A stretch of DNA of 64,000 bases from Vicinamibacteria bacterium (GCA_964291235.2 OZ219815.1:1056001-1120000), one strand, 5' to 3'. Positions 2,593-57,360 are shown, counted from the first letter of the stretch. Program-made: numbers and translations. Notes: generated by a model not told the origin, from the sequence alone.

Positions 2593-2667
2593 ACCGGCGG
2601 TTCCGCCCCCGGAATCCTCAACACCCGTGCCATCCCGCCAGTGGCGCGGCGCCGGCAGTGGAGCCGT

Positions 2668-2901
2668 TCAGGTGGTGAGCAGGACGACGAACATCCCGAA
2701 GAGCAAAACGTTCAGCATGGCCAGGGCGCCGAGCATGAAGGCCGTCAGCGCGATCAGCTCGTCCACGCGGGCGATGATGGCGTCCAGCTCGCCGCCTTGC
2801 TTGTCGAATCGTTGGTCAATTCGCCGCTCATGGTCAGCGAACATTTGGCGCACCTCGGCCAGCAGCGGCTGGAGCTTCGGGGTGACGGGTTCCGAAACCA
2901 T
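2668..2901 (-). CDS. Small coiled-coil + C-terminal TM protein (DUF1640/CCDC90-like), probably 5'-truncated
   Basis: 77 aa with heptad pattern and hydrophobic C-terminus; N-terminus VSEPVTPKLQPLLAEVRQM resembles TSETAVARLQPVMAELRQM in 62054..62488. Confidence 0.6.
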   Translation of the reverse strand: MVSEPVTPKLQPLLAEVRQMFADHERRIDQRFDKQGGELDAIIARVDELIALTAFMLGALAMLNVLLFGMFVVLLTT

Positions 2902-2917
2902 GGTGCGCGTCCGCTGG

Positions 2918-2996
2918 TCAGTCCCCGTGCCGCGCCCGGAGGGGCGGCGCCAGCCGCGCCATCAGGATCATCCGCTCGACCGCATCCGGCCACTCG
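2918..2996 (-). pseudogene. Duplicated 3' end of the thioredoxin-like gene
   Basis: 72/79 nt identical to 3695..3773; encodes ERMILMARLAPPLRARHGD-stop. Confidence 0.9.
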
Positions 2997-3006
2997 CGGG
3001 GCGTGG

Positions 3007-3411
3007 TCAGGCGCCGGAAGGCAGGCGCTGGATCCCGGGCGCCTCGTCGAAACCGCGATCGAACGACAGGATTCGCGAGATTCCGCACCGATCCATCACC
3101 GCGATGTGCATGGCGTCGCGCGACGAGACCGACGGGACGGAGAACAGCACTTCCCGAGCCCGGAGCGCATCGTCGAGAATGACGGGAAACACCTCGTCCA
3201 CGAGATCGAGCAGAGCCGAAAACGCCGGGTGAATGGCGTCCGGACGGCGGATCGCCGAATAGCGGTGCAGGATCTCCTGAAGCACCTCCACGCTCGTCAC
3301 CAGCCTTTCGCCGGTCAACGCCAGACCCTCCAGCGCTCGCCGCGCCTCGTCCCGGCAGGGATGGGGGCTCCCGATCAGATACATCGGGATGTTGGAGTCC
3401 ACGAATGTCAC
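3007..3411 (-). CDS. vapC: VapC PIN-domain toxin
   Basis: FVDSNI...VLQE...RDAMHIA...SFDRGFD PIN acidic motifs; 134 aa; overlaps the antitoxin stop. Confidence 0.9.
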   Translation of the reverse strand: MTFVDSNIPMYLIGSPHPCRDEARRALEGLALTGERLVTSVEVLQEILHRYSAIRRPDAIHPAFSALLDLVDEVFPVILDDALRAREVLFSVPSVSSRDAMHIAVMDRCGISRILSFDRGFDEAPGIQRLPSGA

Positions 3412-3656
3412 TCGGCGGTGCGCCCCGCTTCGATCTCGGCGAGCATCTGGTCAATGTCCCCGGTGGGGAAGGAATAGGAGGTGGCGATTCGAATCGCGCG
3501 GAGCTTTTGCTCCGCCTTCTTCGCCGGCCCGTCCTGTTTGGCCTCCCGGAGGCGCAGGCGAACCCACTCGGACAGTCGAAGTCCCTCGCGCTGGGCGGCG
3601 TCCCGATACCCCCGCAATTCGTCCGCGTCCATAACGACCTGGAGACGTGTACTCAT
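3408..3656 (-). CDS. vapB: VapB-type antitoxin
   Basis: MSTRLQVVMDADE...LSEWVR...FPTGDIDQMLAEIE, 82 aa, directly upstream of vapC; palindrome GTATA-N7-TATAC upstream at about 3664-3680. Confidence 0.8.
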   Translation of the reverse strand: MSTRLQVVMDADELRGYRDAAQREGLRLSEWVRLRLREAKQDGPAKKAEQKLRAIRIATSYSFPTGDIDQMLAEIEAGRTAE

Positions 3657-3694
3657 ACGATGAGTATATCCGCAGTATACAGGGGTCAGACTCG

Positions 3695-4282
3695 TCAATC
3701 CCCGTGCCGCGCCCGGAGCGGCGGCGCCAGCCGCGCCATCAGGATCATCCGCTCGAACACGTCGAGCCACTCGGCCGTCTCGGCGGCAAGGGCTCCGCCG
3801 TCCGCCGACCCGGGCAGCGGGCACGCGGCGCCGAGTTCCGTCGCAGCTTTCTCGCGGTACACCGCCAGCGGCCGGTCCCCGAACCGGCCGATCTCGTGGA
3901 AGTCCTCCGTCAGGAACACGACCATCGGAACCCGCATGGCGCCCAGTACGCGAAGCTCGTCCCGCAGTTCCGGGATGGCGTCCCGGTCCACGAGGCGCAG
4001 ATCGACGGATGGCCCCGCCGCCTCGGCGAGCCGCGCCACGATCGGGACCGAGCGGACGCAGTCCCCGCACCAGATTCCGCTGAGGCAGAGCACGTTCACG
4101 ATGCGGCCGGCGGCGTCGAGTCGGGTGGTGGCGTCTTCCGGCAGCGCCGGAAGCGCGGCCCCGGCCCGCGTCCAGGCCGCCTGTTCGCGGTCGTTTCCGG
4201 TGGCGACGTAGTCGGAGTACGGCAGGCCCTCCTCGAAGGCGTCGCGGAACAGGTCGGACCGGCGATCAAAGTACGCGCTCAT
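3695..4282 (-). CDS. Thioredoxin-family protein
   Basis: WCGDC motif and RVP cis-Pro loop. Confidence 0.85.
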   Translation of the reverse strand: MSAYFDRRSDLFRDAFEEGLPYSDYVATGNDREQAAWTRAGAALPALPEDATTRLDAAGRIVNVLCLSGIWCGDCVRSVPIVARLAEAAGPSVDLRLVDRDAIPELRDELRVLGAMRVPMVVFLTEDFHEIGRFGDRPLAVYREKAATELGAACPLPGSADGGALAAETAEWLDVFERMILMARLAPPLRARHGD

Positions 4283-4462
4283 GCAGGGGCTCCAGGGAAC
4301 ACGGGATTATCCGCCCTCCGCGCCGGGGCGCGGGTCACGGAGGCGGGCATCGTCCTGCCGTTTGCGCGATTGCCTGGGAACGCCATCCAGCGTCCGTGGA
4401 CGTACCATGTCGCCGGGGCTCAATCGCCGCTCGGCAGCGTCCCGTGCGGGCCCAATCGAACT

Positions 4463-6184
4463 TTGTCCGACGAGATCGCCTGGTACGACGCCCATGCCGA
4501 GATGCTGGCGGATCGCTACGAGGCTGTCTCTCCGGAGCGCGTTCATGGCTGGCTGACGGACTTATTGCCTTCGCAGCCCGCGACCATCCTCGACGTTGGT
4601 GCCGGCAGTGGTCGCGATGCGGCATGGTTGGCTTACAAGGGCTACGAAGTCGTCGCGGTCGAACCGTCCTCCGGACTTCGCACGATGGCGCGTGAACGGC
4701 ACGACGTTCCGCGCATTCAATGGATCTCCGACTCGCTGCCCGGCCTCAAACGTACGTTCCGGACCGGCCTCGCCTTCGACGTGATCCTGGTCAGCGCGGT
4801 CTGGATGCATGTCGCCCCATCGGACCGGGCGAGGGCGTTCAGAAAGCTGATCACACTCCTCAAGCCTGGCGGCGTCTTGGCCATCACGCTGCGCAGCGGC
4901 TCCGCCGAGGCGGGCCGCACGTTCCATCCTGTCTCTGCGGCGGAGATCAAGCGCCTCGCGCGGGATCACGGTGCGTTTGTCGAACGGGAGAACACCGCCG
5001 CCGACCAGCTCGGCCGCCGCGAGATCCGTTGGGAACAACTGGCGGTCCGGCTTCCAGACGACGGTACCGGCGCACTGCCGCTGCTGCGGCACGTCATTCT
5101 GAACGACGACAAGAGTTCCACGTACAAGCTCGGCCTGCTGCGCGTGCTCTGCCGCATCGCCGACAGCGCCGGCGGGTTCGCATCGCCGGTGGACGACGAG
5201 CACGTCGCGATTCCGATGGGCCTGGTGGCGCTGACCTGGATTCGGCTCTACAAGCCGCTGCTGGCGGCAGACTTGCCCCAGAACCGGAATAACCAGCAGG
5301 GTGGTCAGGGACTCGGTTTCGCCAAGGAGGCTTTCGGGCAGCTCGCATATCTGTCAGACCTTCGGATGGGCTCACGGCTCACCGGCGACAGCGGCCGGGC
5401 GCTCCACCACGCACTCAGGGACGTGGCGGGCACCATTCGTAGGATGCCGGCGCGCCACATGACGTATCCCAACGCGCCGGAACCCATTCTTCCCGCAGGG
5501 GCCGGTACGGCAGGCCGGTATCCGGGTGGGGTGCGGCTGGACGAGCCGTACCTCGCGAGCTTCGGCACGATGCGGGTACCGATCCACCTGTGGCAGGCGG
5601 CTCAACGTTTTGCCGTGTGGATCGAACCCGCGATCGTTGCTGAATGGAAGCGGATGACCCGATCCTACGCGGAGAGACAGGGACGCAGGCTTGAAGACGC
5701 CCAGCTCTCTGCGGCCATGACCTGGGAGGATCCCACTCGGGACGTAAGCCTTGCGCGGGAGCAGGCCGAGCGGTTGCTCGCCGAACAGCCTCTCCATTGC
5801 GTCTGGAGCGGTAAGCGTCTGTCCGTTGACAAACTCGACATGGATCACTGTTTCCCATGGGCCGTCTGGCCCTGCGGAGACCTCTGGAACCTGCTACCCA
5901 CGCACCGAACGGTCAATCAGCACGAGAAGCGCGACCTCCTGCCGTCGGACCGGCTGCTCAGGGCCGCGCAGGACCGGATTCTCGGCTGGTGGCACGATGC
6001 GTACCGGGCGCACCCGGACCACCCGCTGGCCGAGCGCTTCATGCTGGAAGCTGCGGTCAGCCTGCCGGGCATCCTCTCAACAGAGACCGATCTCGACGGC
6101 TGCTATTCCGCCCTCGAGCTGCAACGGTTGCGGCTGAGCCAGAACCAGCAGGCGCCGGAGTGGAGCGGAGCAAAGTACCTGTGA
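4463..6184 (+). CDS. Class I SAM methyltransferase fused to a C-terminal HNH nuclease
   Basis: LDVGAGSGRD SAM motif; SSTYKLGLL central motif; CVWSG...DMDHCFPW...DLWNLLP...N HNH; TTG start at 4463 inferred within the 3647..6184 ORF. Confidence 0.85.
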   Translation: MSDEIAWYDAHAEMLADRYEAVSPERVHGWLTDLLPSQPATILDVGAGSGRDAAWLAYKGYEVVAVEPSSGLRTMARERHDVPRIQWISDSLPGLKRTFRTGLAFDVILVSAVWMHVAPSDRARAFRKLITLLKPGGVLAITLRSGSAEAGRTFHPVSAAEIKRLARDHGAFVERENTAADQLGRREIRWEQLAVRLPDDGTGALPLLRHVILNDDKSSTYKLGLLRVLCRIADSAGGFASPVDDEHVAIPMGLVALTWIRLYKPLLAADLPQNRNNQQGGQGLGFAKEAFGQLAYLSDLRMGSRLTGDSGRALHHALRDVAGTIRRMPARHMTYPNAPEPILPAGAGTAGRYPGGVRLDEPYLASFGTMRVPIHLWQAAQRFAVWIEPAIVAEWKRMTRSYAERQGRRLEDAQLSAAMTWEDPTRDVSLAREQAERLLAEQPLHCVWSGKRLSVDKLDMDHCFPWAVWPCGDLWNLLPTHRTVNQHEKRDLLPSDRLLRAAQDRILGWWHDAYRAHPDHPLAERFMLEAAVSLPGILSTETDLDGCYSALELQRLRLSQNQQAPEWSGAKYL

Positions 6185-6294
6185 ATCAGCGCCGGATGGA
6201 CGGGCGCACGTTGCCCGCTGTCCGGGTCCGGGGGATCGTTTCCGAATCGGTGGGCGCTTGATATTGCCGACCCCGACCGGGATCAGCGACTCGA

Positions 6295-6635
6295 TATCGA
6301 CCGGAGCTGCCTCCCGCGGCTGCCGTTATCGACCGGAGCTGCCGTTGCCGACCCCGGATATCGACCGGAGCTGTCTTCCGCGGATGCCGTTATCGACCGG
6401 AGCTGTCTCCCGCGGATGCCGTTATCGACCGGAGCTGCCTTTCGCGGACGCCGTTATCGACCGGAGCTGTCTCCCGCGGCTGCCGTCATCGACCGGAGCT
6501 GTCTCCCGCGGACGCCGTTATCGACCGGAGCTGTCTCCCGCGGCTGCCGTCATCGACCGGAGCTGGCGTCGCCGACCCCGGATATCGACCGGAGCTGGCG
6601 TCGCCGACCCTGTATATCGACCGGAGCTGCCGTCG
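6295..6635. repeat. Tandem array, 11 copies of a 32-bp unit
   Basis: Units start at 6295, 6327 ... 6615, each with the invariant core ATCGACCGGAGCTG. Confidence 0.95.
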
Positions 6636-6901
6636 CTGTGCCGGAGAAAAGAAAGCCGCCCGCAAGGACGGAATCTCCCACGGCCCTTGACCGAGCAATG
6701 GTCGCAAAAGGGTCACCACAGCGATCAGGGGCGGCGCGGGTCTCGGCGTCGTCTGCATGCCGGGTCTTGCGGGGCCAACGTCGCGGTGGCCCGCCGGTTG
6801 GCCGGCAACATGTCGCAGTAGCGGCCTGCGGTACTCTCGACCTGTGTCCGCCGGTTCGCGGCGGACGCGACTTCCGCTGAATCTCTGAAGCAGGATCTGC
6901 T

Positions 6902-8584: not shown

Positions 8585-9020
8585 CTGCTGGGGTTCCCGC
8601 CGAGACGGGAGCCGTCTTGACGGTTGGGGGGCTGTCCCGGCGCCCGCCTGCGGCGGGCTGTGCCGATCTGGAGATCGGCGTTCCATTGCGGTCGCCCGCC
8701 GACTGTGCTCGTGGGGGTCTGTCCCGGCGCCCCGCTTCGCGGGGCTGTGCCGATCTGGAGATCGGCGTTCCATTGCGGTCGCCCGCCGCCTGTGCTCGCG
8801 GGGTCCGTCCCGCCGCCCCGCTTCGCGGGGCTGTGCCGATCTGGAGATCGGCGTTCCCGTGCCGGTGGTGCTGTGGGGGCTGGAGGGCGATGTGCGTTTC
8901 GCTCCCCGGCGGGGAGCGGCCCCCACCGGGAGAACTGGGCCGGCCGGAGGCCGGCGCTCCGCTGTCGTGCGACGCCAAGGCTGGCCGGGGTACCCGCCGA
9001 GACACAGCCATCTTGACGGT
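8585..9020 (-). repeat. REP-like hairpin cluster
   Basis: Three copies of GGGCTGTGCCGATCTGGAGATCGGCGTTCC plus a GCCGGCCGGAGGCCGGCGCTCC variant. Confidence 0.85.
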
Positions 9021-10583: not shown

Positions 10584-11840
10584 GTGCTGCGCAAGACCCT
10601 CGATCGCCTCGGCGCACCGTTCGAGCCGGGAGGCCGGCTCCACCGCCTGTGGCCGCTCTGGGACGCCCAGGACACCTTCCTCTACACCCCGGGGAAGACC
10701 ACTGCCGGGCCGTCGCACGGCCGCGACCGCCTGGACATGAAGCGGCTCATGTTCACGGTGGTCATCGCGCTCGCCGGCACCGTGGCGATGGCCTTTTACA
10801 ACACCGGCCTCCAGGCGAACCTCGCGATATCGCAGGGCGCCACGCCGCTCCCCGGCTGGCGGACGGCGGCGATCGAGGCGCTCGGGATCGGTTTCTCTCC
10901 CGACAGCGTGCTGGCGGCGGTCGTCCACGGCGGACTCTGGTACCTGCCGGTCCTGATCGTGACCTTCGCGGTCGGCGGCCTCTGGGAGGTGCTCTTCGCG
11001 GTGATCCGCCGCCACGAGGTGAGCGAGGGCTTCCTGGTCACCGGGATGCTCTTCCCGCTCATCCTGCCGCCCACGGTGCCGCTTTGGCAGGTGGCGCTCG
11101 GCATCAGTTTCGGGGTCGTGGTCGGCAAGGAAATCTTCGGGGGCAGCGGTTTCAACATCCTGAACCCCGCCCTGACTGCTCGGGCCTTCCTCTTCTTTGC
11201 CTACCCCAGCGACTTGACCGGCGACCGCATCTGGATCGCCGCCGACACCGCTCCGGACGCCGTCAGCGGGGCGACCTGGCTCGCCCGTTTCAGCCTCGTC
11301 GGTCCGGAAGCCCTTCCGGAGACCTTCCATCCGGCGGGCGGAGCCGGCATCTCCGCCTGGGACGCCTTCATCGGACTGCTCCCCGGCTCGATGGGAGAGA
11401 CCTCGGTGCTGGCCTGCCTCTTCGGCGCCGTGATCCTCGCGGCGACCGGGATCGGCTCGCTCCGGATCATGCTCGCGGTGGCGGCGGGAACCCTGGTGAT
11501 GGGCGGCCTCCTGAACCTCGTCGGCTCGGACACGAATCCGTTCTTCGCCATCCCCTTCTGGTGGCACTACCTGCTGGGCGGATGGGCTTTCGGCACCGTC
11601 TTCATGGCCACCGAGCCGGTGACCGCCCCCTCCACGAGCGGCGGCCGGCTGGTTTACGGCTTCCTGATCGGCGTGCTCGTGGTCCTGATTCGGGTCGTGA
11701 ATCCCGCCTATCCGGAGGGCATGATGCTCTCCATCCTGCTGATGAACGTCTTCGCGCCGCTCATCGATCACTTCGCCCTGCGGAGCAACATCCGCCGCCG
11801 GGCCGCCGCGTCGGCGCTCGTTACCGCAGGGCGCGGCTAA
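10584..11840 (+). CDS. nqrB: Na+-NQR subunit B
   Basis: HGRDRLDMKR, EGFLVTGMLF, KEIFGGSG, FMN site DAVSGAT, YPEGMMLSILLMN. Confidence 0.97.
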   Translation: MLRKTLDRLGAPFEPGGRLHRLWPLWDAQDTFLYTPGKTTAGPSHGRDRLDMKRLMFTVVIALAGTVAMAFYNTGLQANLAISQGATPLPGWRTAAIEALGIGFSPDSVLAAVVHGGLWYLPVLIVTFAVGGLWEVLFAVIRRHEVSEGFLVTGMLFPLILPPTVPLWQVALGISFGVVVGKEIFGGSGFNILNPALTARAFLFFAYPSDLTGDRIWIAADTAPDAVSGATWLARFSLVGPEALPETFHPAGGAGISAWDAFIGLLPGSMGETSVLACLFGAVILAATGIGSLRIMLAVAAGTLVMGGLLNLVGSDTNPFFAIPFWWHYLLGGWAFGTVFMATEPVTAPSTSGGRLVYGFLIGVLVVLIRVVNPAYPEGMMLSILLMNVFAPLIDHFALRSNIRRRAAASALVTAGRG

Positions 11841-11860
11841 ATTCCGGTGGCCGTCCTCTC

Positions 11861-16613: not shown

Positions 16614-16756
16614 TCCGCCGTACGTGGCGCTGGCTCCCCCAACGCCAGGACGGCTCCCCCCTCGGCGCGGACCCCAACGGCCCCCACAGCACCGCCCGCA
16701 AGGGAACGCCGACCTCTGAGCTTGCCCCGGTTTCTCGGACCAGTGGGAGCGCCGGT

Positions 16757-17605
16757 TCATGGCGGCCCCCGGAGTTGTTGTTCGAAGTCTACGGGTGACA
16801 GGTAGCCGAGGGCGGAGTGCCGCCGATAAGGGTTGTACCAAGCCTCGATGAACTCGAAGACGGCTTCGCCGGCAGCTTTGGGGTTGGGGAACTGGGTCCG
16901 GTCGAGCACCTCGCACTCCAGGGTGGCGAAGAAGGACTCCGCCATCGCGTTGTCGTAGCAGTCCCCCACCGAACCCATGGAAGGCCGGACCCCGGTGGCC
17001 CGGCAGCGGCGCCCGAACGCCACCGAGGTGTATTGGCACCCCTGGTCCGAGTGGTGGATCACTCCCTGGGGCCGCCGCTGCTCGAGCGCCATGTCCAAGG
17101 CTTTCAGGACCAGGGTGGCCCGCGCATGCAGCGCCATCGCCCAGCCCACCACCCGCCGGCTGCAGGCGTCCACAACCACCGCCAGGTGCAACATTCGCGT
17201 CCGCGTCGGGATGTAGGTGATGTCGGCCACCCAGAGCTGGTCCAGAGCCGTGGCCTCGAAGTTCCGGTCCACCAGGTCCGGCGCCGGCCGCGCCTCGCCG
17301 TCCCGGATCGTGGTGCGGACGCGGCGTCGGCGGCTTACACCACAGATCCCCAACGCCCGCATCAGCCGCGCAACCCGCTTCCGGCTCGTCTGGTTTCCCC
17401 GCGCTGCCAACTCCGCCCGGATCCGCGGCGCCCCGTAGGTGCCTCGACTCGCCGCATGGGCCGCCGCGATCTCCACCTTCAGGCGCTCGTCCGCCTGAAC
17501 CCGCGCACTGGCCCCGCGGCCACGCCAGGCGTAATACCCACTGCGGGACACTCCCAGCAGGCGCCCCATCTCCCGCACGCTCATCACGGCCCGGCTCGCA
17601 TCCAT
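16757..17605 (-). CDS. IS3 OrfB, DDE transposase
   Basis: YGAPRI, LWVADITY, HHSDQG, DNAMAESFF, YNPYRRHSALGY. Confidence 0.95.
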   Translation of the reverse strand: MDASRAVMSVREMGRLLGVSRSGYYAWRGRGASARVQADERLKVEIAAAHAASRGTYGAPRIRAELAARGNQTSRKRVARLMRALGICGVSRRRRVRTTIRDGEARPAPDLVDRNFEATALDQLWVADITYIPTRTRMLHLAVVVDACSRRVVGWAMALHARATLVLKALDMALEQRRPQGVIHHSDQGCQYTSVAFGRRCRATGVRPSMGSVGDCYDNAMAESFFATLECEVLDRTQFPNPKAAGEAVFEFIEAWYNPYRRHSALGYLSPVDFEQQLRGPP

Positions 17606-17907
17606 CAGTCGGTACCTCCCGACGATGTCTCCCGGGCGAACCAGGCCGCCGCTTTTTTTAGGAAGGCGTTCTCCCGCTGCAGCCGCCGGTTCTCACGTTC
17701 CAGCCGCTTCAACTCCTCCCGCTCCTCTTTCGTCCAGCCGTCGCCCCCGCGGCCCTCCGCCGCATCCGCGTCCATCACCCAACGCCGGATCGCTCGCGGA
17801 CTCGCCTCATACTCCTCTGCGACTTCCTCGGCGCTACGTCCCGAGCGAACCAGCGCAACCACCCGCTTTCGATACTCCGCCGTATATCGGCGGCCAGGAC
17901 TGCCCAT
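17605..17907 (-). CDS. IS3 OrfA (HTH + leucine zipper) with an A7G -1 frameshift site
   Basis: MGSPGRRYTAEYRKR...ELKRLERENRRLQRENAFLKKAAAWFA; AAAAAAAG on the minus strand at 17652-17659. Confidence 0.9.
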   Translation of the reverse strand: MGSPGRRYTAEYRKRVVALVRSGRSAEEVAEEYEASPRAIRRWVMDADAAEGRGGDGWTKEEREELKRLERENRRLQRENAFLKKAAAWFARETSSGGTD

Positions 17908-18326
17908 CTCAGACCTCCTTTGTGCCACCGGCACTATGAGTGGTCCGTTTTCCCGGGGCAACTCCACTCCAGGCCGGCACAGCCCGCCGTAGGCGGGCGT
18001 CGGCACGTCCCCCCCAGCGCCCAGACGGCTCCCCTCTCGGCGCGGCCCCCAACAGCCCCCACAGCACCGCCCGCACGGGAACGCCGGCCTCCAGGCCGGC
18101 ACAGCCCGCCGTAGGCGGGCGGCAGCCCGTACCCCCCGGGGCCAGGGCGGCGCCGCTCTCGGCGTAAACCCCCGCAACCGTAATGTCGCACAGGCACGGG
18201 AACGCCGACCTCCAGGTCGGCACAGCCCGCCGTAGGCGGGCGTCGGCACGTCCCCCCCCAGCGTCCGGACGGTTCCGCTCTCGGCGGAAACTCCAGCAGC
18301 CCTAACGGCGATACGATCCCGGAGCG

Positions 18327-18521
18327 ATGTGGCAGGCCCTCGGAGTCATCCTCCTCTCCCTGGGCGTGGTCGTCCTTTCGATCTTCCTGCTGGGGCTCGG
18401 TTCCCTCCTCAAGGGCCGCTGCACCCTGCGCGGTTGCGGCCCCGAAGGGCCGGCGGGTGACACCTGCGACGGCTGTCCACGGGCCGGGCCGTCCGAATCG
18501 CATCCCCCAATCGAGGTCTGA
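18327..18521 (+). CDS. nqrM: NqrM-like Na+-NQR maturation factor
   Basis: 64 aa; one TM helix then LKGRCTLRGCG...TCDGC; follows apbE as in canonical nqr loci. Confidence 0.7.
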   Translation: MWQALGVILLSLGVVVLSIFLLGLGSLLKGRCTLRGCGPEGPAGDTCDGCPRAGPSESHPPIEV

Positions 18522-18542
18522 GCCTCCGGCTCTCCGAACGGA

Positions 18543-18656
18543 TCAGCGCCGTTCCACGATGGGAGCCAGGCTCTCATCGAGAGACACCCGATGCCTTCCT
18601 CTTGATTCGCGCTTGTAGTCCCGCTTGAACTGGCTGGTCCGCTCAATCGTCCGCAT
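18543..18656 (-). pseudogene. yafQ: Truncated YafQ toxin (37 aa)
   Basis: MRTIERTSQFKRDYKRESRGRHR...-stop; overlaps the dinJ 3' end; catalytic C-terminal part is missing. Confidence 0.8.
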
Positions 18657-18906
18657 GCAGATCGTCGAGCAGAGCCTGCGTGTTGTCGAACCGGGGAAGG
18701 TTCCCCTTGCGGGCTTCCTTCATCGCCTCAACCGTGGCCGCGTTGGGGACAAGGGGTGCGAACGGCAGTGCCTTCTCGTACGCCACGCGGGTCAGCAGAA
18801 GCCGAATGGCGTCGGAGACGGTCAGGCCCACGGCGGCCAGCACGGCGGCCGCCTCCTCCTTCACAGCGGGATCGATGCGAGCTTGGACGAGTTGATTCGC
18901 AGCCAT
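18643..18906 (-). CDS. dinJ: RelB/DinJ antitoxin
   Basis: VQARIDPAVKEEAAAVLAAVGLTVSDAIRLLL...LPF...PNAATVEAMKEAR. Confidence 0.9.
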   Translation of the reverse strand: MAANQLVQARIDPAVKEEAAAVLAAVGLTVSDAIRLLLTRVAYEKALPFAPLVPNAATVEAMKEARKGNLPRFDNTQALLDDLHADD

Positions 18907-18962
18907 AGGGATTCGAGCCCTCCTGTGACTGACATTATCGTTCATTTGAATACAGATGCGGA

Positions 18963-19092
18963 GTGCTCGGGCTCGGCCCGCTCTTGAAGGGCCGTTGCAT
19001 CCTCCGCCGCGGCTGGGTGGAAGGCCGGTCGCCGACTCCCGCGCGACGGCTGTCCCCGGGCGGAGCCGCCGCCAAAAATCGAGGTCTGAGCC
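18963..19092 (+). pseudogene. Degenerate duplicate of the nqrM 3' part
   Basis: Encodes LGLGPLLKGRC; shares GCGACGGCTGTCC and terminal AATCGAGGTCTGAGC with 18387..18524; frameshifted. Confidence 0.85.
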
Positions 19093-19306
19093 GGCGGCCT
19101 CCGGCGCGTTGTGTTTCCGTTCGTCCATGGGGATGTACCTCCAGGACCAATAGACGGAATTTCGACGCGTTTTGTCCCACCCCCGGCCTCGATGGGGAAA
19201 ACTCGAAGCGATGACGCTGCGCGTCCGGCCTGTTCCGCACGGAGCGTTCCGGCGTCGTCGTCCGGCCCCGCGCGGCCGTCCGCCGGCCGTCCGCCGGCCG
19301 CCCGGG

Positions 19307-32963: not shown

Positions 32964-33154
32964 CGCTCTAGCAAAGGACAGGGAGCCCCTACCGAGAGAA
33001 CCGGGCTGGCGGCTCCTTGTGCGCCACCACGGCGGCCCTCCGCCCGTAGGCGCCGCTCGGGATTTCTCCCGTTGTTCCTCCAGCTTTCGGACTTCAACTA
33101 TTTAACCGAGTAAATCAGCCGATGAGAGGCTGTTTTACACACTAAAATAGTTCC

Positions 33155-43339: not shown

Positions 43340-43670
43340 ACGGGAAGCCCGGCCTCCAGCTCAACAGCCTTGGTGTCGCACGGGCACGGGAACGCCGGCC
43401 TCCAGGCCGGCACAGCCCGCCGCCGGCGGGCGGCGGGACGGACCCTCCACCGTCAGGATGGTTCCCTCACGGCGGAACCCCCAGCAGCCCCGACGGCGCA
43501 CGGGCACGGGAACGCCGGCCTCCAGGCCGGCACAGCCCGCCGCCGGCGGGCGGCGGGACGGACCCTCCAGCGTCAGGATGGTTCCCCTCTCGGCGGGGAC
43601 TCCAGCAGCCCCGACGGCGCACGGGCACGGGAACACCGGCCTCTAGGCCGGCGGCGGGACGGACCCTCCA
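43340..43670 (+). repeat. REP-like tandem array (about 120-bp units)
   Basis: Near-identical units starting at about 43378 and 43498, partial unit at about 43619. Confidence 0.9.
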
Positions 43671-47354: not shown

Positions 47355-50300
47355 GTGAACATCACGAAATACGCCATCCGGCACCGCCTGTCGGTCTATT
47401 TCCTGATCCTCATCCTCTGTCTGGGTGGGGTGGGCGTCTATGTCTCGATGCCGCGGGAGTCGTTCCCCGAGGTGGAGGTCCCCTTCATCCTCGTGTACAC
47501 GATCTATCCCGGCGTCAGCCCGACGGACATGGAGACGCTCGTCACGCGGCCCATCGAAACCGAACTCAAGGCGGTCTCCGGGATCAAGGAGATCAGTTCG
47601 ACGACCAGCGAGGGGATGTCCAGCATCGCGGTCGAGTTCAACCCCGAAACCGATCTCGAGACCGCGCTCGCCAGCGTCCGCGAAAAAGTGGACCTCGCGA
47701 AATCGGACCTTCCTCCCGAGGCCGAGGACCCGCGCGTCCAGGACATGGATTTCTCGCAGGTCCCGATCATGATGATCACGCTCTCGGGGCCGGTCGGGAG
47801 CCAGCGGCTCACCGAGGTCGCCGAAGACATCCAGGAGGATCTGGAGGCGTTGCCCGGGGTCAACCGGGTCAACGTGATCGGGGGCCGCGTACGCGAGGTC
47901 CACGTGCAGGTGGATCCCAAGCGGCTGGCGTTCTTCGAGCTCAGCCTCGCGGACGTCGTCGTCGCGGTGGCCCGGGAGAACCGGAACGTGCCGGGCGGCG
48001 AAGTCGCGGTCGGCGGGCTCGAATACCTGGTCCGCCTGCCGGCTGAAGTGCGGCTGCCGTCCGAGATCGAGGACTTCGTCATCAAGGTCCGGGACGGCGA
48101 ACCGGTCTTCGTTCGCGACGTGGCGGATGTCGTCTTCGGATTCGAGGACGAGAGCAGCCGGTCGCGGGTGGATCAGGAACCGTCGGTCACGCTGAGCGTC
48201 GAAAAGCGCACCGGCGCCAACCTCGTCTCCGTCGCGGACCTCGTCAATGCCGAGCTCGGGCGTTGGGACGAGATGCTCCCGGAAGGGATCAGCACGGCGG
48301 TGGTGGGGGACATCTCGGTCGAAATCCGGCGGATGGTGAACGAGCTGGAGAACAACGTCATCTCCGGCCTGTTGCTCGTCGTTGGCTGCCTGATGGCGTT
48401 CGTGGGACTCCGCAACTCCTTCTTTGTGGGAGTGGCGATCCCGCTCTCGATGATGGCCTCCTTCCTGGTGCTCGGCTGGATCGGCTACACGCTGAACATG
48501 ATGGTGCTCTTCAGCCTCATCCTGATGCTCGGGATGCTGGTGGACAACGCCGTGGTGATCGTCGAGAACATCTACCGGCACCGCGAGCACGGCGACGCCG
48601 GGCCCGACGCGGCCTACGAGGCCACCACCGAGGTGGCCCGCCCGGTCATCGCCTCCACCATCACCACGCTCTGCGCGTTTTCGCCCCTGCTGATCTGGCC
48701 CGGGATCATCGGCGACTTCATGTCCTACCTGCCGGTGACGCTCATCATCGGCCTGACGGCCTCGCTGGTGGTGGCGCTGATCATCAACCCGACGCTCTGC
48801 GCGCACCTGATGAAGCCACCGCGGCGCGGCGTCAAGAAGGCCAACGCCGAAGAACACGCGTTCCGCCGCGGTTACCGCCGTCTCCTCAAGTGGTCGCTCC
48901 GTCCGGGGCCGGACGCCGGCACCCGTTCCTGGTTCTTCCGGAACTGGGCGCTGCCCGCGGCGTTCGTGCTGTTCCTGGGAATCGGCATGGCGCTCGCGCT
49001 GACCGGCATGTTCTTCCAGACGAACGTCCTGCTGCCGGTGGTGGCGGGGTTCGCGGGCATCGGCGTCCTCGCCTTCGTCCTGCAGGGAATCTGCTGGCTC
49101 GTCTGGAGCCTGATCCGCCGCCCCTTCGGCTGGACCCCGTATCTCACCGATCACCGTTCCGGTTGGATCTGGATGATGTGCGCCGTCCTGGTGGGGACGG
49201 TGGGGGTTTACACCCAGATCGGGAAGGGCGTGGAGCTGTTTCCCGAGGTCGAGCCGCGCCAGATCAGTATCGACGTGGAGACGACCGCCGGCTCCAGCCT
49301 GGACGCCTCCGACGGGATCGTCCAGCAGATCGAAGGCCTGACCACCGGGACCGTGGACGTGAAACACCAGGTCGCGAACGTGGGCTCCACGGGCGTCAGC
49401 ATGAATCCCGGAGGCGGCGGCGGCGGGAGTCCGAACCGCAGCCAGGTCACCCTGTATCTGCACGAGCGGGCCGACCGCGAGGTCCGGAACACCTTCACTA
49501 CCATGGAGCAGGTGCGGGCGGGGCTCGCCGATATCGTGGGCGCCAACGTCAAGGTGGACGCGCCCCAGGACGGCCCCCCGACGGGGGCCCCGGTATCGGT
49601 TCGCATCCTGGGGGACGAGCTGGACGAGATCGAGCGGCTCGCGGAAGACGTGAAGGCCCGCATCCGCGGCATCGAGGGGCTCGTCAACCTCGATGACGAC
49701 CTCGAGGGCGGAAAGCCCGAACTTCGGGTCGAGGTGAACCGCGAGGAGGCGATGCGCTCGGGTGTTGACACCCAGATCATCGCCGCCACGGTGCAGACCG
49801 GGATCCTGGGCGCCGAGGCCTCGAAATACCGGGTCGGCGAGGACGAGCACGACATTCGCGTTCGATTGGCCCCCGAGGCGCGGGCATCCCTCGACGACAT
49901 CGGCGAGCTCACCGTGCCCGACGACGACGGCATTCCGGTACCCATCCGGACGGTGGCCGAGCTGAAGCACGGGGTGGGCCCCGCAGCGGTTCGCCGGGTG
50001 GACCTCAACCGGGTGGCCACCATCGAGGGCGACGTGGTCCGGGATTCCGGACGCACCGAGGCGAGCGTTCGCGAGGAAGTGGCGGCCGAACTCGACGCGA
50101 TGGAATGGCCGCCCGGCTACCGGTGGGAGTTCTCCGGGGCCAACCAGGAGGAGCAGCAGGCGACCGCGTTCCTGTCGCGCGCTTTCGTCATCGCGCTCCT
50201 GCTCATCCTGATGGTGCTGGTCACCCAGTTCGATTCGCTGATCCTGCCGCTCACCATCATCACCTCGGTCGCGCTGTCCGTGATCGGCGTGCTCTGGGGC

Positions 50301-50774
50301 CTGATGCTCACCGGGACCGCGTTCGGGATCATCATGACCGGGATCGGGGTGATCTCATTGGCGGGGATCGTGGTCAATAACGCCATCGTCCTCTGCGATT
50401 TCGTGCGCCAGCTCCGCGAGCGGGGCCTCAGCCGGCACGACGCGGTGGTGGAAGCGGGGTCCATCCGGCTTCGCCCGGTGCTCCTCACGGCCGTGACCAC
50501 GGTGCTCGGCCTCGTTCCCCTGACGCTCGGCCTCAACATCGACTTCTTCAACCTCTCCGTCTCCACGGGCGGCGAGAGTTCGCAGTTCTGGGCCTCCATG
50601 GGCGTCGCGGTGATCTTCGGCCTCACCGTCGCGACGGTCCTCACCCTGGTAGTGGTCCCGGTCACCTACGACAGCCTCGACGGCCTCTCCGAGGCCGTCG
50701 CGGACTGGCGCAAGCGACGCAGCACCCAAGCACAGAATGTCGGCGGAGGCGCCCTCCACCCCGCAGGAACGTAG
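47355..50774 (+). CDS. RND efflux permease (AcrB/MdtB-like)
   Basis: GMLVDNAVVIVEN, GIVVNNAIVLCD, RLRPVLLT. Confidence 0.96.
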   Translation: MNITKYAIRHRLSVYFLILILCLGGVGVYVSMPRESFPEVEVPFILVYTIYPGVSPTDMETLVTRPIETELKAVSGIKEISSTTSEGMSSIAVEFNPETDLETALASVREKVDLAKSDLPPEAEDPRVQDMDFSQVPIMMITLSGPVGSQRLTEVAEDIQEDLEALPGVNRVNVIGGRVREVHVQVDPKRLAFFELSLADVVVAVARENRNVPGGEVAVGGLEYLVRLPAEVRLPSEIEDFVIKVRDGEPVFVRDVADVVFGFEDESSRSRVDQEPSVTLSVEKRTGANLVSVADLVNAELGRWDEMLPEGISTAVVGDISVEIRRMVNELENNVISGLLLVVGCLMAFVGLRNSFFVGVAIPLSMMASFLVLGWIGYTLNMMVLFSLILMLGMLVDNAVVIVENIYRHREHGDAGPDAAYEATTEVARPVIASTITTLCAFSPLLIWPGIIGDFMSYLPVTLIIGLTASLVVALIINPTLCAHLMKPPRRGVKKANAEEHAFRRGYRRLLKWSLRPGPDAGTRSWFFRNWALPAAFVLFLGIGMALALTGMFFQTNVLLPVVAGFAGIGVLAFVLQGICWLVWSLIRRPFGWTPYLTDHRSGWIWMMCAVLVGTVGVYTQIGKGVELFPEVEPRQISIDVETTAGSSLDASDGIVQQIEGLTTGTVDVKHQVANVGSTGVSMNPGGGGGGSPNRSQVTLYLHERADREVRNTFTTMEQVRAGLADIVGANVKVDAPQDGPPTGAPVSVRILGDELDEIERLAEDVKARIRGIEGLVNLDDDLEGGKPELRVEVNREEAMRSGVDTQIIAATVQTGILGAEASKYRVGEDEHDIRVRLAPEARASLDDIGELTVPDDDGIPVPIRTVAELKHGVGPAAVRRVDLNRVATIEGDVVRDSGRTEASVREEVAAELDAMEWPPGYRWEFSGANQEEQQATAFLSRAFVIALLLILMVLVTQFDSLILPLTIITSVALSVIGVLWGLMLTGTAFGIIMTGIGVISLAGIVVNNAIVLCDFVRQLRERGLSRHDAVVEAGSIRLRPVLLTAVTTVLGLVPLTLGLNIDFFNLSVSTGGESSQFWASMGVAVIFGLTVATVLTLVVVPVTYDSLDGLSEAVADWRKRRSTQAQNVGGGALHPAGT

Positions 50775-51230
50775 GAGCGCCGGTCTCCGACCGGCATCGC
50801 TCCCCCCAGGGGAGCGAAACGCACTTCGCCGATCAGCCCCACGTCACCCCGGCACGGGAACGCCGGCCTCCAGGCCGGCACAGCCCGCCACAGGCGGGCG
50901 GCGGTCCGGACCCCCCCACCGCCAAACGATCCCCCTCTCGGCGCGTACCCCCACCAGCCTGGGTGGCACCCCGGCACGGGAACGCCGACCTCCAGGTCGG
51001 CACAGCCCCGCGAAGCGGGGCGGCGGCCCGGCTCCCCCACCGCCAGGATGGTTCCCCTCTCGGCATGGACCCCACCAGCCCCCACGTCGCGCCGGGGAGC
51101 GAAACGCGCATCGCTGATCAGCCGCACGTCACCCCGGCACGGGAACGCCGACCTCCAGGTCGGCACAGCCCGCCGTAGGCGGGCGGCGGGAAGGAACCTC
51201 CAGTTCCAAGGTGGTCCCGTCTCGGCAGCG
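50772..51230 (+). repeat. REP-like cluster
   Basis: Three GGCACGGGAACGCCG(G/A)CCTCCAGG(C/T)CGGCACAGCCC units plus GGAGCGAAACGC subrepeats. Confidence 0.88.
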
Positions 51231-51254
51231 TTTGGAACACTGCCCGCCCACTCC

Positions 51255-52517
51255 TCAAGGCCCCAAAGCACCGCACGGGATCACGGAGACCCCGTCGCTC
51301 CGCCGGTATCCGTAACCGCTCCCCACAATCACTCCCAGGGCCGCCGGTTTGCCGACCGCGGTCGTGTCCACGCGTTGTGCGAACTGAAGCAGGTTCGCGG
51401 CTGCCTCTTCGACCCGACCCGTCCCCAGCTTGATCTCGAATCCAGCCCAGCGGCCGGGACTCGCCTCCACAATGGCATCGACCTCAAGGTCTGTGTTGTC
51501 CCGGTAGTGGTACACCCTCGCTCTGGCGGCCTGGGCATAGATGCGCAGGTCACGGATGACCATGGATTCGAACAGGAAGCCGAACCACTCGAAATCCGTG
51601 AGCAGGCGGTCAGGTCCAGCGCCCAGCGCCGCCACCGCAAGAGAGGGATCCACGAAATGGCGTTTCGGCGAGGTCCGCAGCCGGGACCGGGAACGGAGCC
51701 GCGGCGCCCAGGCCGGCTGGTCTTCGACGACCATCAGTCTCTCGAGCGCCGCCAGGTACCCGCGAGCGGTAGGCGGCTTCAAGTGGTCGTCCGGTCCGTT
51801 GGCGTCGCGGGTGATCGTCGCCAGTGAAGCGCAGGTGGCCACGTTGCGACCGAGTGACTGAAGGAAGCGCCGCACCCTCTCGGGATCACGCCGGATTCCG
51901 TCCACGCGTTCAAGATCTGCCCGGCAGACATCTTCCAGATAGTCCCGGTTGGCCTGCAGGGCGGCATGGGTGGGCGAACTGAGCTGTCCGGGCCAGCCAC
52001 CGGCGCACACGAGTTCCGCCAGCTCTTGGGCGGAAAGCTGTGCCTCTTCTGCGGCTGTCGGCTCTCCGTCAAGAAGAGCGCCCAGGGAAATCTCGCCGGT
52101 GGAGCGGCCAAGTTCCGATAGGGACATCGGGCGTAACCGGAGGCGGCTTATCCTCCCGGCCCCGGTGTGCCAGGTCGTGTCGTCGGGGGGGACCGCCGAG
52201 CCGGTCAGAATGAACTGATTGGACGCGCGACGCTCGTCAACAGCCCGCCTGACGTGGTTCCACAGGACCGGAGCGAGTTGCCATTCGTCAATTAGCCGGG
52301 GCGTCTCCCCTTTGAGAACCAGCCTTGGGTCCACGGCGAGCGCTTCGCGCGCCTTCTGATCCACATCCAGCAGCACCTCGCTCGCCGAGGCGTGCCGCCC
52401 CGTCTCGGTTTTGCCGCAGGCTCGGGCACCCTCCACCAGGACGGCGCCCGCGGAGGTGAGACGGTCGGCGAGTTCTCGATCAGCGATGCGAGGACGGTAG
52501 TTTTGTACTTTGGGCAA
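51255..52517 (-). CDS. AAA ATPase + DUF4143 (COG1373-like)
   Basis: GARACGKT, IDEWQ, LTGSA, GGWP, SPKRHFVDP, EVDAIV...FEIK. Confidence 0.9.
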   Translation of the reverse strand: MPKVQNYRPRIADRELADRLTSAGAVLVEGARACGKTETGRHASASEVLLDVDQKAREALAVDPRLVLKGETPRLIDEWQLAPVLWNHVRRAVDERRASNQFILTGSAVPPDDTTWHTGAGRISRLRLRPMSLSELGRSTGEISLGALLDGEPTAAEEAQLSAQELAELVCAGGWPGQLSSPTHAALQANRDYLEDVCRADLERVDGIRRDPERVRRFLQSLGRNVATCASLATITRDANGPDDHLKPPTARGYLAALERLMVVEDQPAWAPRLRSRSRLRTSPKRHFVDPSLAVAALGAGPDRLLTDFEWFGFLFESMVIRDLRIYAQAARARVYHYRDNTDLEVDAIVEASPGRWAGFEIKLGTGRVEEAAANLLQFAQRVDTTAVGKPAALGVIVGSGYGYRRSDGVSVIPCGALGP

Positions 52518-52564
52518 AGCGCTGTGGTTCTATTGAGGGAACTTGGAAAGAGAAATTAGCGAGT

Positions 52565-52633
52565 CAACAGATGTTTTGCAACGATTACAACATCACTTTC
52601 GCAATAACTTCAACGACTGATTTGCAATAACAA
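52565..52633. promoter_or_regulatory. Three imperfect 23-bp direct repeats upstream of the ATPase
   Basis: CAAC at 52565/52588/52611 and GCAA at 52578/52601/52624 in an AT-rich tract. Confidence 0.55.
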
Positions 52634-52807
52634 ACGGCGGCGCGCAGTGCTGGGTATCGATGGAGGCGGCGGTGATCTTCGGTCCTCACCGTCGTGACCG
52701 TCCTGCCCCTAGTCGTCGTCCCGGTCACCTACGACAGGCTTGCGGACGCGGTCACTCGCTGGCGCAAGAGGCACACCGCCGAGGACCCTCCATCCAGCGG
52801 GACCTGA
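52634..52807 (+). pseudogene. Degenerate duplicate of the RND permease 3' end
   Basis: QCWVSMEAAVIFG/LTVVTVLPLVVVPVTYDRLADAVTRWRKR...GT-stop versus QFWASMGVAVIFGLTVATVLTLVVVPVTYDS...WRKR...GT-stop (50565..50774). Confidence 0.9.
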
Positions 52808-57359: not shown

Positions 57360-57360
57360 A

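Follow-up and report, generated by a model that had tools for sequence, protein, structure and literature searches.

Integrative elements such as those in icd (e14 and phage 21; icdC is the pseudogene there), as well as the streptococcal ICE cis-mobilisable elements, restore the 3′ end of the protein-coding gene that they enter; they carry or need a dedicated integrase, and their crossover core is fixed. For restriction-modification systems, Nobusato et al. reportedly described insertion with long target duplication in 2000, and Jackson et al. are said to have worked on C-terminal displacement in 2009. The first-pass annotation of the DNA analyzed here knew of no description of its main pattern as genome-wide; close published analogues nevertheless exist, in long target duplication insertion and in C-terminal displacement. 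The restriction-modification (RM) systems whose insertion involved long target duplication, in the cases covered by the portion of the article available to us, are addiction-type selfish cassettes without a mobility gene, with repeats far longer than transposon target duplications; the repeats often span the stop or start codon, the target gene survives, a related genome has the empty site, and the species are mostly competent (Furuta, Abe, & Kobayashi, 2010, PMC2853133). Each of these traits finds a likeness at our loci. In the arrays that C-terminal displacement builds at Rhs, CDI, and T6SS effector-immunity loci, as far as the accessible text of Kirchberger et al. (2017, PMC5361080) describes them, an incoming module similarly provides the gene with a fresh 3′ end, while the former one moves downstream together with its partner genes, successive events yield arrays, no integrase takes part, and homology-facilitated illegitimate recombination (HFIR) on the conserved upstream part is proposed. 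Conjugation in Escherichia coli with a single homologous arm gave a 109-950-bp gene-end duplication in 56 of 60 recombinants, caused by single crossover of a circular molecule, and true HFIR was rarer than single-crossover integrants in the excerpted results (Amarir-Bouhram et al., 2011, PMC3240628). MGE-free toxin-antitoxin (TA) islets, finally, are lone TA pairs in small variable spots between core genes, their toxins often eroded, according to the sections consulted of Belot et al. (2026, PMC13617665).

The 3.45-Mb Vicinamibacteria genome studied here (two contigs, 90% complete; G000 in comparisons with relatives) carries a recurrent recombination scar, in which a core gene precedes a small imported cassette, often a TA pair, beyond which the gene's last codons recur as a dead copy. 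The window, that is, the whole 64,000-nt stretch that was analyzed, holds three such host genes: a thioredoxin-like (Trx) gene, an nqrM-like open reading frame (ORF), and an RND permease gene. As the first-pass annotation had proposed, blastn recovers behind each of them cargo and a decayed 3′-end copy that includes the stop, and the copies are diverged rather than identical. A further case, proposed at the SDR 24013 gene, was not supported: its alignment scored 20 (shuffle mean 21), and tblastn gave no match next to the gene. The features of the Trx locus are as follows:

3695-4282, minus strand: intact Thioredoxin_9-family gene, host gene 1 (Pfam PF14595, E 9e-21)
3408-3656, minus strand: VapB-like small ORF of 82 aa, cargo, with a 4-nt overlap with the VapC start
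3007-3411, minus strand: VapC (PIN domain) toxin gene, cargo (Pfam PIN, E 9e-16)
2918-2996, minus strand: dead copy 1 of the Trx 3′ end with its stop codon (72/79 positions shared with 3773-3695; blastn, E 6e-27)
2668-2901, minus strand: 77-aa ORF with a hydrophobic C-terminus and a good coding score, earlier labelled 'DUF1640-like', older cargo
2618-2667, minus strand: possible, weak dead copy 2 of the Trx 3′ end (score 23; shuffle mean 17, maximum 29)

The last 79 nt of the Trx gene, stop included, have a single further copy in the whole genome, at 2996-2918, and the VapB-like and VapC genes separate the two. A PIN toxin with an overlapping 82-aa ORF upstream identifies a type II VapBC module; the small ORF, which has no family match in profile searches, is 91% identical to G002 DNA at the same site. 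Profile searches likewise returned no family match for the 77-aa ORF, for which homologous DNA is found at the Trx locus of G002 and G013. At the spot orthologous to the second remnant, G002 has a 44-nt match to the Trx end (82%). The Trx orthologues of nine relatives are 195 aa each. Contigs bridge the cargo-to-repeat junction: X4 across 2950-3749, with 0 differences, and X1, from another study, across 2918-3675.

The second locus lies behind the nqr genes:

16757-17907, minus strand: IS3-family transposase (orfA and orfB), a neighbor outside the cargo (Pfam rve E 5e-24, HTH_Tnp_1 E 4e-11)
18327-18521, plus strand: host gene 2, a Cys-rich membrane ORF of 64 aa at the place of nqrM, conserved behind nqr/apbE in 15 genus members
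18543-18656, minus strand: yafQ stump of 37 aa by translation, truncated cargo toxin (G002 orthologue 93 aa, YafQ_toxin E 7e-29)
18643-18906, minus strand: dinJ/relB antitoxin gene, cargo (Pfam RelB E 4e-17; TIGR02384 E 1e-20)
18961-19089, plus strand: dead copy from the 3′ part of the nqrM-like ORF, with its stop codon (72.6% identity across 106 nt, E 1e-8)

The place of the 64-aa ORF after the nqr and apbE genes and its four Cys are the sole basis that suggests an nqrM-like gene; neither Pfam nor NCBIfam returned an NqrM (DUF539) match, even at E 5. The blastn match pairs 18388-18491 with 18964-19068, the stop context is the same in both copies, and dinJ and the yafQ stump fill the space between them. 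With RelB/DinJ beside a YafQ stump that is full length in G002, the cargo is a type II DinJ-YafQ module. The dead copies here and in G002 begin at one and the same nucleotide, and contig X4 bridges the junction here as well (18643-19435).

At the third locus, the cargo is a candidate defence gene:

47355-50774, plus strand: RND (AcrB-type) permease gene, host gene 3, its duplicated part at 50581-50774 (Pfam ACR_tran E 2e-212)
50812-51219, no strand assigned: array of a dispersed ~121-nt intergenic repeat (repeat families D2, D5, D10, D15)
51255-52517, minus strand: cargo, an AAA_14-DUF4143 ATPase that matches the PADLOC candidate PDC-S01 (Pfam E 4e-33 and 5e-10; PDC-S01 E 2.5e-68)
52643-52807, plus strand: dead copy of the RND 3′ end, frameshifted, with its own stop (82.7% over 98 nt, E 1e-22)
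52870-52958, plus strand: tRNA-Ser(GGA), ancestral downstream neighbor of the RND gene (ARAGORN)
52913-53782, plus strand: N-truncated P4-type tyrosine integrase ORF, outside the scar (Pfam Phage_integrase E 6e-16; NF007246 positions 138-395 of 413)

The repeat array and the AAA_14-DUF4143 gene separate the RND copies, which blastn aligns at 50581-50677 and 52643-52740; the dead copy has a 1-nt insertion and two deletions, and ends in TGA at 52805-52807. An orthologous dead copy is present in G002 (84.7% over 163 nt). The tRNA-Ser gene, which adjoins the RND gene in other genera, starts 63 nt past the dead copy.

The arrangement recurs beyond the window, as had been proposed. A self-blast scan of the whole genome yielded 128 direct and 19 inverted low-copy pairs, among which automatic classing placed 13 in the 3′-end type and 2 weak pairs in the mirror 5′-end type; after annotation, about 10 loci with the layout were retained. 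Their repeats are 35-168 nt long, the copies 73-95% identical, and the cassettes, which contain no mobility genes, 0.44-2.6 kb in size. The host genes (thioredoxin-like gene, RND permease, GntP permease, FGE-sulfatase, and others) have conserved C-termini, and all are full length relative to orthologues, with the reading frame kept. The cargo follows the stop codon of the intact copy without a gap, and in most events the similarity between copies ends at the stop codon. Two scars are stacked at Trx and two at a 184-aa gene. The earlier emphasis on TA and defence cargo fits most loci (a TA module or defence candidate at 7 of 10), but carbonic anhydrase, RiPP tailoring enzymes, and CARDB with phytase are also carried; truncation of cargo genes, claimed for several, is borne out for yafQ.

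Comparison with relatives revealed empty sites at five of five loci, in which the gene end and its downstream DNA are collinear with the dead copy. Contiguous matches cover the dead copy and downstream DNA at GntP in G008 (query 1981-2501, 86%), at FGE-sulfatase in G009 (query 1472-2501, 84%), and at RND in G017 (query 3144-3459); the dead copies are collinear with the ancestral downstream DNA. Even with host and cargo unchanged, scar lengths vary: the FGE-sulfatase/MNT combination has 256 nt in G001, 168 nt in G000, and 79 nt in G004; GntP has 131 nt here and an ectopic 419-nt fragment with cargo in G001; and Trx with vapBC has 79 nt here versus internal fragments (nt 160-398 and 65-206) in G013. 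The GntP cargo occupies the same site without a dead copy in G012, G005, and G002, so most transfers are scarless, or scars are lost. Similarly, the AAA-DUF4143 gene lies between RND and tRNA-Ser without any dead copy in G012, G011, and G006, and cargo and scar are therefore separable. Since the left GntP cargo junction in G000 is unlike that of all sampled carriers, no sampled genome is the donor; nor was microhomology at a joint, or a circular form, observed. At the 184-aa locus, orf113 and an M23 peptidase, which form part of the 'cargo', are conserved across the genus, and a more complex history is needed there. Relatedness is itself mosaic, with G002 and G000 96% identical in nqrC-F and 80-89% at nqrM, RND, GntP, and Trx.

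The explanation to which we give roughly even credence is one-ended homologous integration of a block, comprising a gene's 3′ end and its cargo, from relatives, by Campbell-type single crossover or HFIR. A core-gene 3′ end and the adjacent accessory cassette would pass from a related genome into the recipient's orthologue, with homology on one side only. The fragment might circularize and undergo a Campbell-type single crossover inside the 3′ part of the gene; alternatively, in HFIR, its left end would recombine by homology and its right end would be joined illegitimately. Either route would leave the gene intact, finished by the incoming allele, with the cassette directly after the stop codon and the recipient's former 3′ end displaced downstream, where it would decay. 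Later deletions would shorten toxin genes and dead copies, and repeat events would stack scars. The E. coli integrants are alike in that the insert is flanked by variable gene-end duplications, and unlike in that, in the experiments covered by the excerpt, a laboratory plasmid rather than a natural cassette entered lacZ under selection, with gene function lost (PMC3240628). The DNA route (transformation or other) and the enzymes that would make the joints are matters that we infer. The genome encodes ComEC, DprA, and Ku (profile matches above cut-off); ComEC and DprA matches also occur in 10 of 14 control genomes, and, being common in bacteria, the two lend weak support to an uptake route. One-ended recombination also predicts 5′-end scars, so their near absence needs selection, an assumption.

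It is a tentative possibility, beyond such integration, that core-gene 3′ ends act as portable, homology-based attachment sites, in a mobility cycle for which addiction and defence cassettes need no recombinase. RecA would loop the cassette out between the direct copies as a circle keeping one gene-end copy; a relative would take up the circle, and a single crossover in the orthologous gene end would restore the gene and leave a fresh dead copy. If true, no integrase would be needed for TA pairs and PDC-S01 ATPases to spread through a genus, and only a minority of such transfers would be visible, as scars.

We think it unlikely that the scars are what is left of small site-specific integrative elements bringing a surrogate 3′ end, or of integrase-less cis-mobilisable derivatives, with the integrase lost or acting in trans and the repeats representing attL/attR. 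The layout is that of the e14/phage 21-type elements (intact gene, element, diverged dead 3′ end, possible tandem accretion), and the strong 3′-end bias, the stacked scars at Trx and the 184-aa gene, the start of the cargo exactly at the stop codon, and the restored reading frame of all host genes would fit such elements; an element-borne surrogate end would also explain allele-like divergence equally. Unlike in those elements, an integrase and a fixed crossover core were not found at the scars. A domain search of the cargo at all ~10 loci found no recombinase; of the 70 ORFs called at the corresponding sites of relatives, 36 were scanned, none of which has an integrase domain and one of which is an IS5-type transposase. 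The genome has 14 Phage_integrase matches, about 12 integrases besides the XerC/D-like ones, and only one match lies near a scar: the truncated ORF 106 nt past the RND scar, which is situated beyond the tRNA-Ser start and looks like a separate tRNA island. Elsewhere in this genome, in the island L070, a DUF1640/CCDC90-like gene does lie next to an integrase. The label 'integrase-free' therefore holds for the cargo itself and for the relatives' sites scanned, but must accommodate the IS3 transposase pair ~420 nt upstream of the nqrM-like ORF and the truncated integrase past RND. The junctions also fit integrative elements poorly: comparing them yielded no common motif, the repeat edges lack an identical core, copy mismatches are spread evenly and in Trx are densest at the 5′ edge, scar length varies for one host and cargo (FGE-sulfatase, Trx, GntP), and the cassettes are tiny. 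Later erosion could mimic both the missing perfect core and the variable scar length.

Insertion with long target duplication, in which 35-260 nt of recipient DNA at a staggered or processed break would be copied to both sides, identical at birth, with the downstream copy then decaying, is likewise unlikely. Its published class has the same layout, in the cases of the available text, with no mobility genes, repeats >30 bp spanning the stop, and empty sites (PMC2853133). Six events pooled (Trx, GntP, nqrM, h184, NHL, and the amidohydrolase with FAD) have 39 of 83 differences at third positions (p 0.47), the share expected for copies identical at birth of which the dead one then decays, and are compatible with in-situ duplication followed by simple decay. 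The FGE-sulfatase copies in G000, by contrast with decay, differ at synonymous third positions in 8 of 8 cases (p 0.002), and with G001 and G004 included, three species in all, in 22 of 28 (p 5e-4, null 0.46); the corresponding counts for the RND copies are 21/34 in G000 and 27/41 in G002. Because the differences at these two loci are mostly synonymous, the copies appear to have diverged as working alleles before one was displaced. The RND dead tail, moreover, belongs to a G008-like allele class and the intact tail to a G012-like one. Near-identity at birth is thus rejected for FGE-sulfatase, doubtful for RND, and compatible with the six other events. The earlier proposal of a donor allele replacing the native terminus fares well at the first two loci; simple decay is compatible with the six events. 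On average, the distance to relatives is greater for dead than for intact copies (slightly so at GntP, FGE-sulfatase, and Trx), as simple decay also predicts. Random duplication boundaries should often fall beyond the stop codon, where the similarity mostly ends. The RM cases excerpted further differ in cargo, which here comprises some metabolic genes in addition to TA pairs and a PDC-S01 ATPase; in their near-identical repeats (e.g., 44/46, 47/47), against 73-95% and allele-like divergence at two loci here; and in number, as here ~10 loci lie in one genome, with scars stacked (PMC2853133).

Tandem duplications are common in bacteria and the two-contig assembly is 90% complete, but tandem duplication of the gene's 3′ part and cargo with later loss of the second cargo, chance similarity, or an assembly chimera between strains, which the first-pass annotation had named as a possible refutation, are very improbable, given an ancestral spacer directly after the dead copy (the second deletion would need perfect placement), E-values of 1e-8 to 1e-27 with homologous stop codons in the copies, junctions spanned by independent short-read contigs of two studies, and the same RND and nqrM dead copies in a second species, G002.

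C-terminal displacement proper was considered as a class and set aside: none of the hosts is a polymorphic toxin with variable tips and immunity genes, and all C-termini are conserved. Orphaned old 3′ ends are nonetheless stacked downstream without an integrase at Trx and the 184-aa gene. In the arrays covered by the accessible text, the variable toxic payload is the 3′ end itself and orphan immunity genes are selected (PMC5361080); here the hosts are housekeeping genes with conserved 3′ ends, and a distinct cassette that follows the stop codon makes up the payload.

One-ended integration from relatives, our preferred reading, bears on how small TA and defence islets without mobility genes enter chromosomes. 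For TA islets, the sections available of a recent study propose only clean homologous exchange at flanking core genes as the means of spread; they describe no flanking duplications or illegitimate joints, and the terms 'direct repeat', 'illegitimate', and 'scar' are absent from them (PMC13617665). The scars, as physical footprints of imperfect, one-sided exchange, would mark the arrival of at least some islets, attached to the end of a neighboring core gene and spliced into its orthologue. The dead copies would keep the recipient's former allele, and donor, recipient, and timing may therefore be recoverable from sequence alone. Short 3′ pseudogene fragments would accordingly deserve annotation as informative rather than as noise. 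If the pattern is general, a simple genome-wide assay, comparing the last 200 nt of each gene with the next few kb, would gauge recombinase-independent gene flow and its hot spots.

The Pfam-based gene map of the window agrees with the layout that the first-pass annotation had described at three unrelated host genes: an intact gene, then cargo, then a dead copy of that gene's 3' end, stop included (hereafter a scar). G000, the genome under study, comprises 3.45 Mb at 68% G+C in two contigs, and its three loci in the window are arranged as follows.

Locus 1, 4282-3695, minus strand: Thioredoxin_9 gene by Pfam (Trx), the host
Locus 1, 3656-3007, minus strand: cargo, an 82-aa VapB-like ORF and a PIN/VapC gene
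Locus 1, 2996-2918, minus strand: 79-nt dead Trx end including the stop, 72/79 identical, E 6e-27
Locus 1, past the dead Trx copy, minus strand: 77-aa membrane ORF
Locus 1, terminus at 2618, minus strand: possible second Trx remnant, ~45 nt
Locus 2, order of genes: nqr operon, apbE, IS3 element with repeat arrays, 64-aa Cys-rich ORF
Locus 2, 18327-18521: the host, the 64-aa Cys-rich ORF, which occupies the nqrM position
Locus 2, strand opposite to the 64-aa ORF: cargo, a 37-aa yafQ stump and dinJ
Locus 2, same stop context at 19089: 129-nt decayed 3' copy of the 64-aa ORF
Locus 3, 47355-50774: RND permease, the host
Locus 3, between RND and its dead copy: a repeat array, then an oppositely oriented AAA_14-DUF4143 ATPase
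Locus 3, 52643-52807: 165-nt dead RND end, frameshifted and closed by a stop of its own

Beyond the remnants at locus 1 come arrayed units of a dispersed 121-nt repeat and then an ABC transporter, the next core gene. The 64-aa ORF gave no match to the NqrM profile, so the name nqrM denotes position only. A weaker fourth case, proposed at the SDR gene at 24013, was not recovered: neither nucleotide nor protein searches located a copy there. At locus 3 a tRNA-Ser follows 63 nt past the RND dead copy and is itself followed by an N-truncated integrase ORF, so that the earlier description of these insertions as integrase-free was too strong. This ORF (52913-53782) is of P4 type and abuts the tRNA-Ser 3' end, with paralogous DUF3472/fn3 lipoprotein-like genes past it (53876-58504); a second copy of the tRNA-Ser end was not found within the window.

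The dispersed repeat is intergenic, G+C-rich and ~121 nt (sometimes ~87 nt) long, with internal hairpins, and forms tandem arrays of two to four units (2321-2577, 8590-8884, 16634-16716, 17929-18309, 43344-43652, 50812-51219 and 62445-62929). It adjoins two of the three window scars and has many more copies elsewhere in G000 and in same-genus relatives. Other tandem repeats are a 32-nt unit in 10-11 copies (6260-6693), in or beside an ORF without family match, and at least six in-frame 27-nt units in an ORF without Pfam match (61916-62488). A second AAA_14-DUF4143 (PDC-S01) gene lies at 33155-34309, after a 2-kb stretch of low G+C (62-63%; 31000-33000) whose ORFs have no family match. The window also encodes a 311-aa HNH_2 protein that is similar to phosphorothioate-DNA-dependent restriction endonucleases (20617-21552) and, divergent from Trx, a methyltransferase-HNH_4 fusion with a mad2-like PADLOC match (4397-6184).

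The structures are real and, with the exception of the SDR gene, had been described accurately. Public short-read contigs from two studies bridge the cargo-repeat junctions at loci 1 and 2; such Logan contigs are short and broken at repeats, and are informative only where one bridges. A second genome, G002, carries an orthologous RND dead copy (84.7% over 163 nt, with the same indels), an nqrM-like dead copy that starts at the same nucleotide as in G000 and, past the 77-aa ORF, what is left of a Trx end.

The pattern recurs across the genome. Self-comparison of G000 by blast of 12-kb chunks, made independently of ORF calls, gave 1137 distinct pairs, 655 of which passed length and spacing filters (473 direct, 182 inverted); copy number was at most three for 147 (128 direct, 19 inverted). 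An automatic rule sorted the 128 direct pairs into 49 tandem paralogues, 13 3'-end pairs, two 5'-end pairs, both short and weak, and 64 others. Pfam annotation of the candidates, which covered 110 of 119 called ORFs, and further checks left about ten loci that match the pattern, including the three in the window; the others are listed here as host, cargo and copy.

FGE-sulfatase; MNT antitoxin and truncated partner; 168-nt copy (95%)
GntP permease; DUF2442/DUF4160 (DhiA/DhiT-like) pair; 131-nt copy (94%)
184-aa gene; two successive copies that flank a delta-carbonic anhydrase, beside a VapBC pair
NHL-repeat gene; PIN gene; 35-nt copy
2OG-oxygenase; CARDB with phytase; 51-nt copy (weak)
Amidohydrolase; RiPP-cluster FAD-oxidase and methyltransferase; fragments
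Amidohydrolase; ParE/Phd; 75-nt internal fragment, with AbiE genes abutting

Toxin-antitoxin (TA) modules form the cargo at six of the ten loci, and the PADLOC candidate PDC-S01 is present at a seventh. Scar-linked members are a minority of their families in G000: two to three of 25 PIN matches, one of seven DUF4143 and one of two ParE. Candidates dropped from the set were tandem paralogues (L068, L069, L071), intergenic repeats (L067, L072), an integrase island (L070) and apparent paralogue families (C1:241793, C1:305758), and the count of ten leaves aside L065, L066, C2:229809 and the two 5'-type pairs. At the locus of the 184-aa gene (L060, G000:C2:215000-224000), orf113 and an M23 peptidase are conserved genus-wide, and the carbonic anhydrase and VapBC are variable; since copies of the gene end flank the carbonic anhydrase, the locus has a complex history.

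Five loci were compared across 15 genomes of the same genus and 15 more distant ones; none of the conclusions draws on G027. The RND gene directly precedes tRNA-Ser in other genera (G016-G018, G030, G025; gaps of ~100-420 nt), which makes this adjacency ancestral, and in G017 the gene end and tRNA form one contiguous match to the RND dead copy and tRNA of G000. The ATPase lies between RND and tRNA in G002, G012, G011 and G006; it adjoins the tRNA in G003, where RND is on a separate contig, and adjoins RND in G004, G008 and G001, the tRNA there lying 11-17 kb off. It is missing from this locus in G005, G014, G010 and G009. The dead copy occurs in G000 and G002 only, with unrelated DNA in its place in G012, G011 and G006.

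Seven genomes have an empty nqrM locus, where the ORF abuts a convergent Cache gene; dinJ-yafQ occupies it in G002, G006 and G009, and AAA-DUF4143, with or without an HNH gene, in G001, G004 and G013. Homologues of the 311-aa HNH_2 protein adjoin AAA-DUF4143 at this site in G004 and G013, and in relatives AAA-DUF4143 genes occur at the FGE-sulfatase and GntP hot spots as well as at nqrM. Because yafQ is full length in G002, the stump in G000 is the product of a later deletion. At that stump (18521-18553), identity to G002 jumps from ~80% in the nqrM-like ORF to 90% in the dinJ cargo, with nqrC-F upstream at 96%, and this jump suggests that a second replacement took place, its breakpoint falling within yafQ. 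Within the same operon, the nqrB/nqrC junction (11810-11860) holds 2-6 kb of extra DNA in most relatives; the two genes are contiguous in G000, G003, G010 and G016. The Trx locus is empty in six genomes (G003, G004, G008, G014, G001, G012) and carries vapBC in G002 and G013, the latter with internal Trx fragments amid decayed cargo. At the GntP and FGE-sulfatase loci, the empty sites of G008 and G009, respectively, give one contiguous match to the dead copy and its downstream sequence. With the same FGE-sulfatase cargo, dead copies measure 256 nt in G001, 168 in G000 and 79 in G004, and each is most similar to the intact end of its own genome. G001 also carries an ectopic block consisting of a 419-nt GntP end, an ATPase and a TA remnant.

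Whether the displaced copy was once a different allele or arose by duplication in situ can be approached through codon positions. For copies identical at birth, ~46% of differences are expected at third positions if mutations fall evenly on the dead copy and are confined to silent ones in the intact copy; this null was used because one of 1/3 is too lenient. Across all G000 events the share was 68/125 (p 0.04), and only FGE-sulfatase and RND stand out: the former has 8/8, all synonymous (22/28 with G001 and G004 included, p 5e-4), and the latter 21/34 in G000 and 27/41 in G002, two counts that are mutually non-independent. The other six events, pooled, gave 39/83, exactly the expectation for decay. 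The RND dead-copy tail falls into one allele class with G008, G004 and G013, and the intact tails resemble G012, G011 and G005 in G000, and G010 and G003 in G002. Judged by these third-position differences and tail classes, the displaced copy was a working allele unlike the incoming one at FGE-sulfatase, and probably also at RND; for the remaining six events a donor allele and duplication in situ would both fit the data. The mechanism first suggested, in which a donor allele replaces the gene terminus and pushes the old one downstream, is plausible and partly borne out. A caveat for FGE-sulfatase is that its dead copy shares a reading frame with the partner-gene stump and so could still be translated.

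The view that such scars were undescribed was overstated, as close precedents are in print (PMC2853133; PMC5361080). The closest description concerns restriction-modification systems and goes by the name of insertion with long target duplication: repeats of >30 bp, often across a stop codon, without mobility genes and mostly in competent species (PMC2853133). The closest mechanistic proposal is C-terminal displacement by homology-facilitated illegitimate recombination at Rhs, CDI and T6SS loci, which orphans old 3' ends (PMC5361080). For TA islets, a study from 2026 puts forward clean homologous exchange at the core genes on either side, and flanking repeats go unmentioned in it (PMC13617665). 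In the literature covered, supplementary tables aside, we found no account of this scar where TA cassettes adjoin housekeeping genes; the supplementary tables that accompany Furuta 2010 and Belot 2026 may list further cases.

We give an even chance to one-ended homologous integration as the explanation for all of these features. A donor fragment consisting of the gene's 3' part and the cassette would come from a relative and either circularise and enter by one crossover inside the recipient's gene end, or recombine on its left side and be end-joined on its right. In E. coli, one-armed DNA is reported to leave such duplications of 109-950 bp in 56 of 60 recombinants (PMC3240628). G000 encodes ComEC, DprA and Ku.

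A site-specific element that supplies a surrogate 3' end through its integrase is a less likely alternative. A bias to 3' ends, stacking and surrogate-end logic are hallmarks of elements of this kind, but a recombinase is absent, scar length varies with the same host and cargo, mismatches run throughout the repeats instead of flanking a perfect core, and the junctions have no common motif. Among 36 ORFs scanned at scar sites in relatives none was an integrase and one was an IS5-type transposase. A search for an identical core or a motif common to the junctions found none, and the conserved Trx tail was rejected as a sign of an attachment site: other Trx blocks are conserved equally, so protein constraint explains it. 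Tandem duplication followed by deletion is unlikely, since the ancestral spacer directly abuts the dead copy.

Under one-ended homologous integration, selection would account for the near absence of 5' scars, because a dead 5' stub would retain the promoter and start codon and leave the live gene without a promoter of its own. Identity between G002 and G000 is 96% across nqrC-F and 80-89% elsewhere, and this locus-dependent relatedness, as read from the sequences, points to frequent homologous exchange among these genomes.
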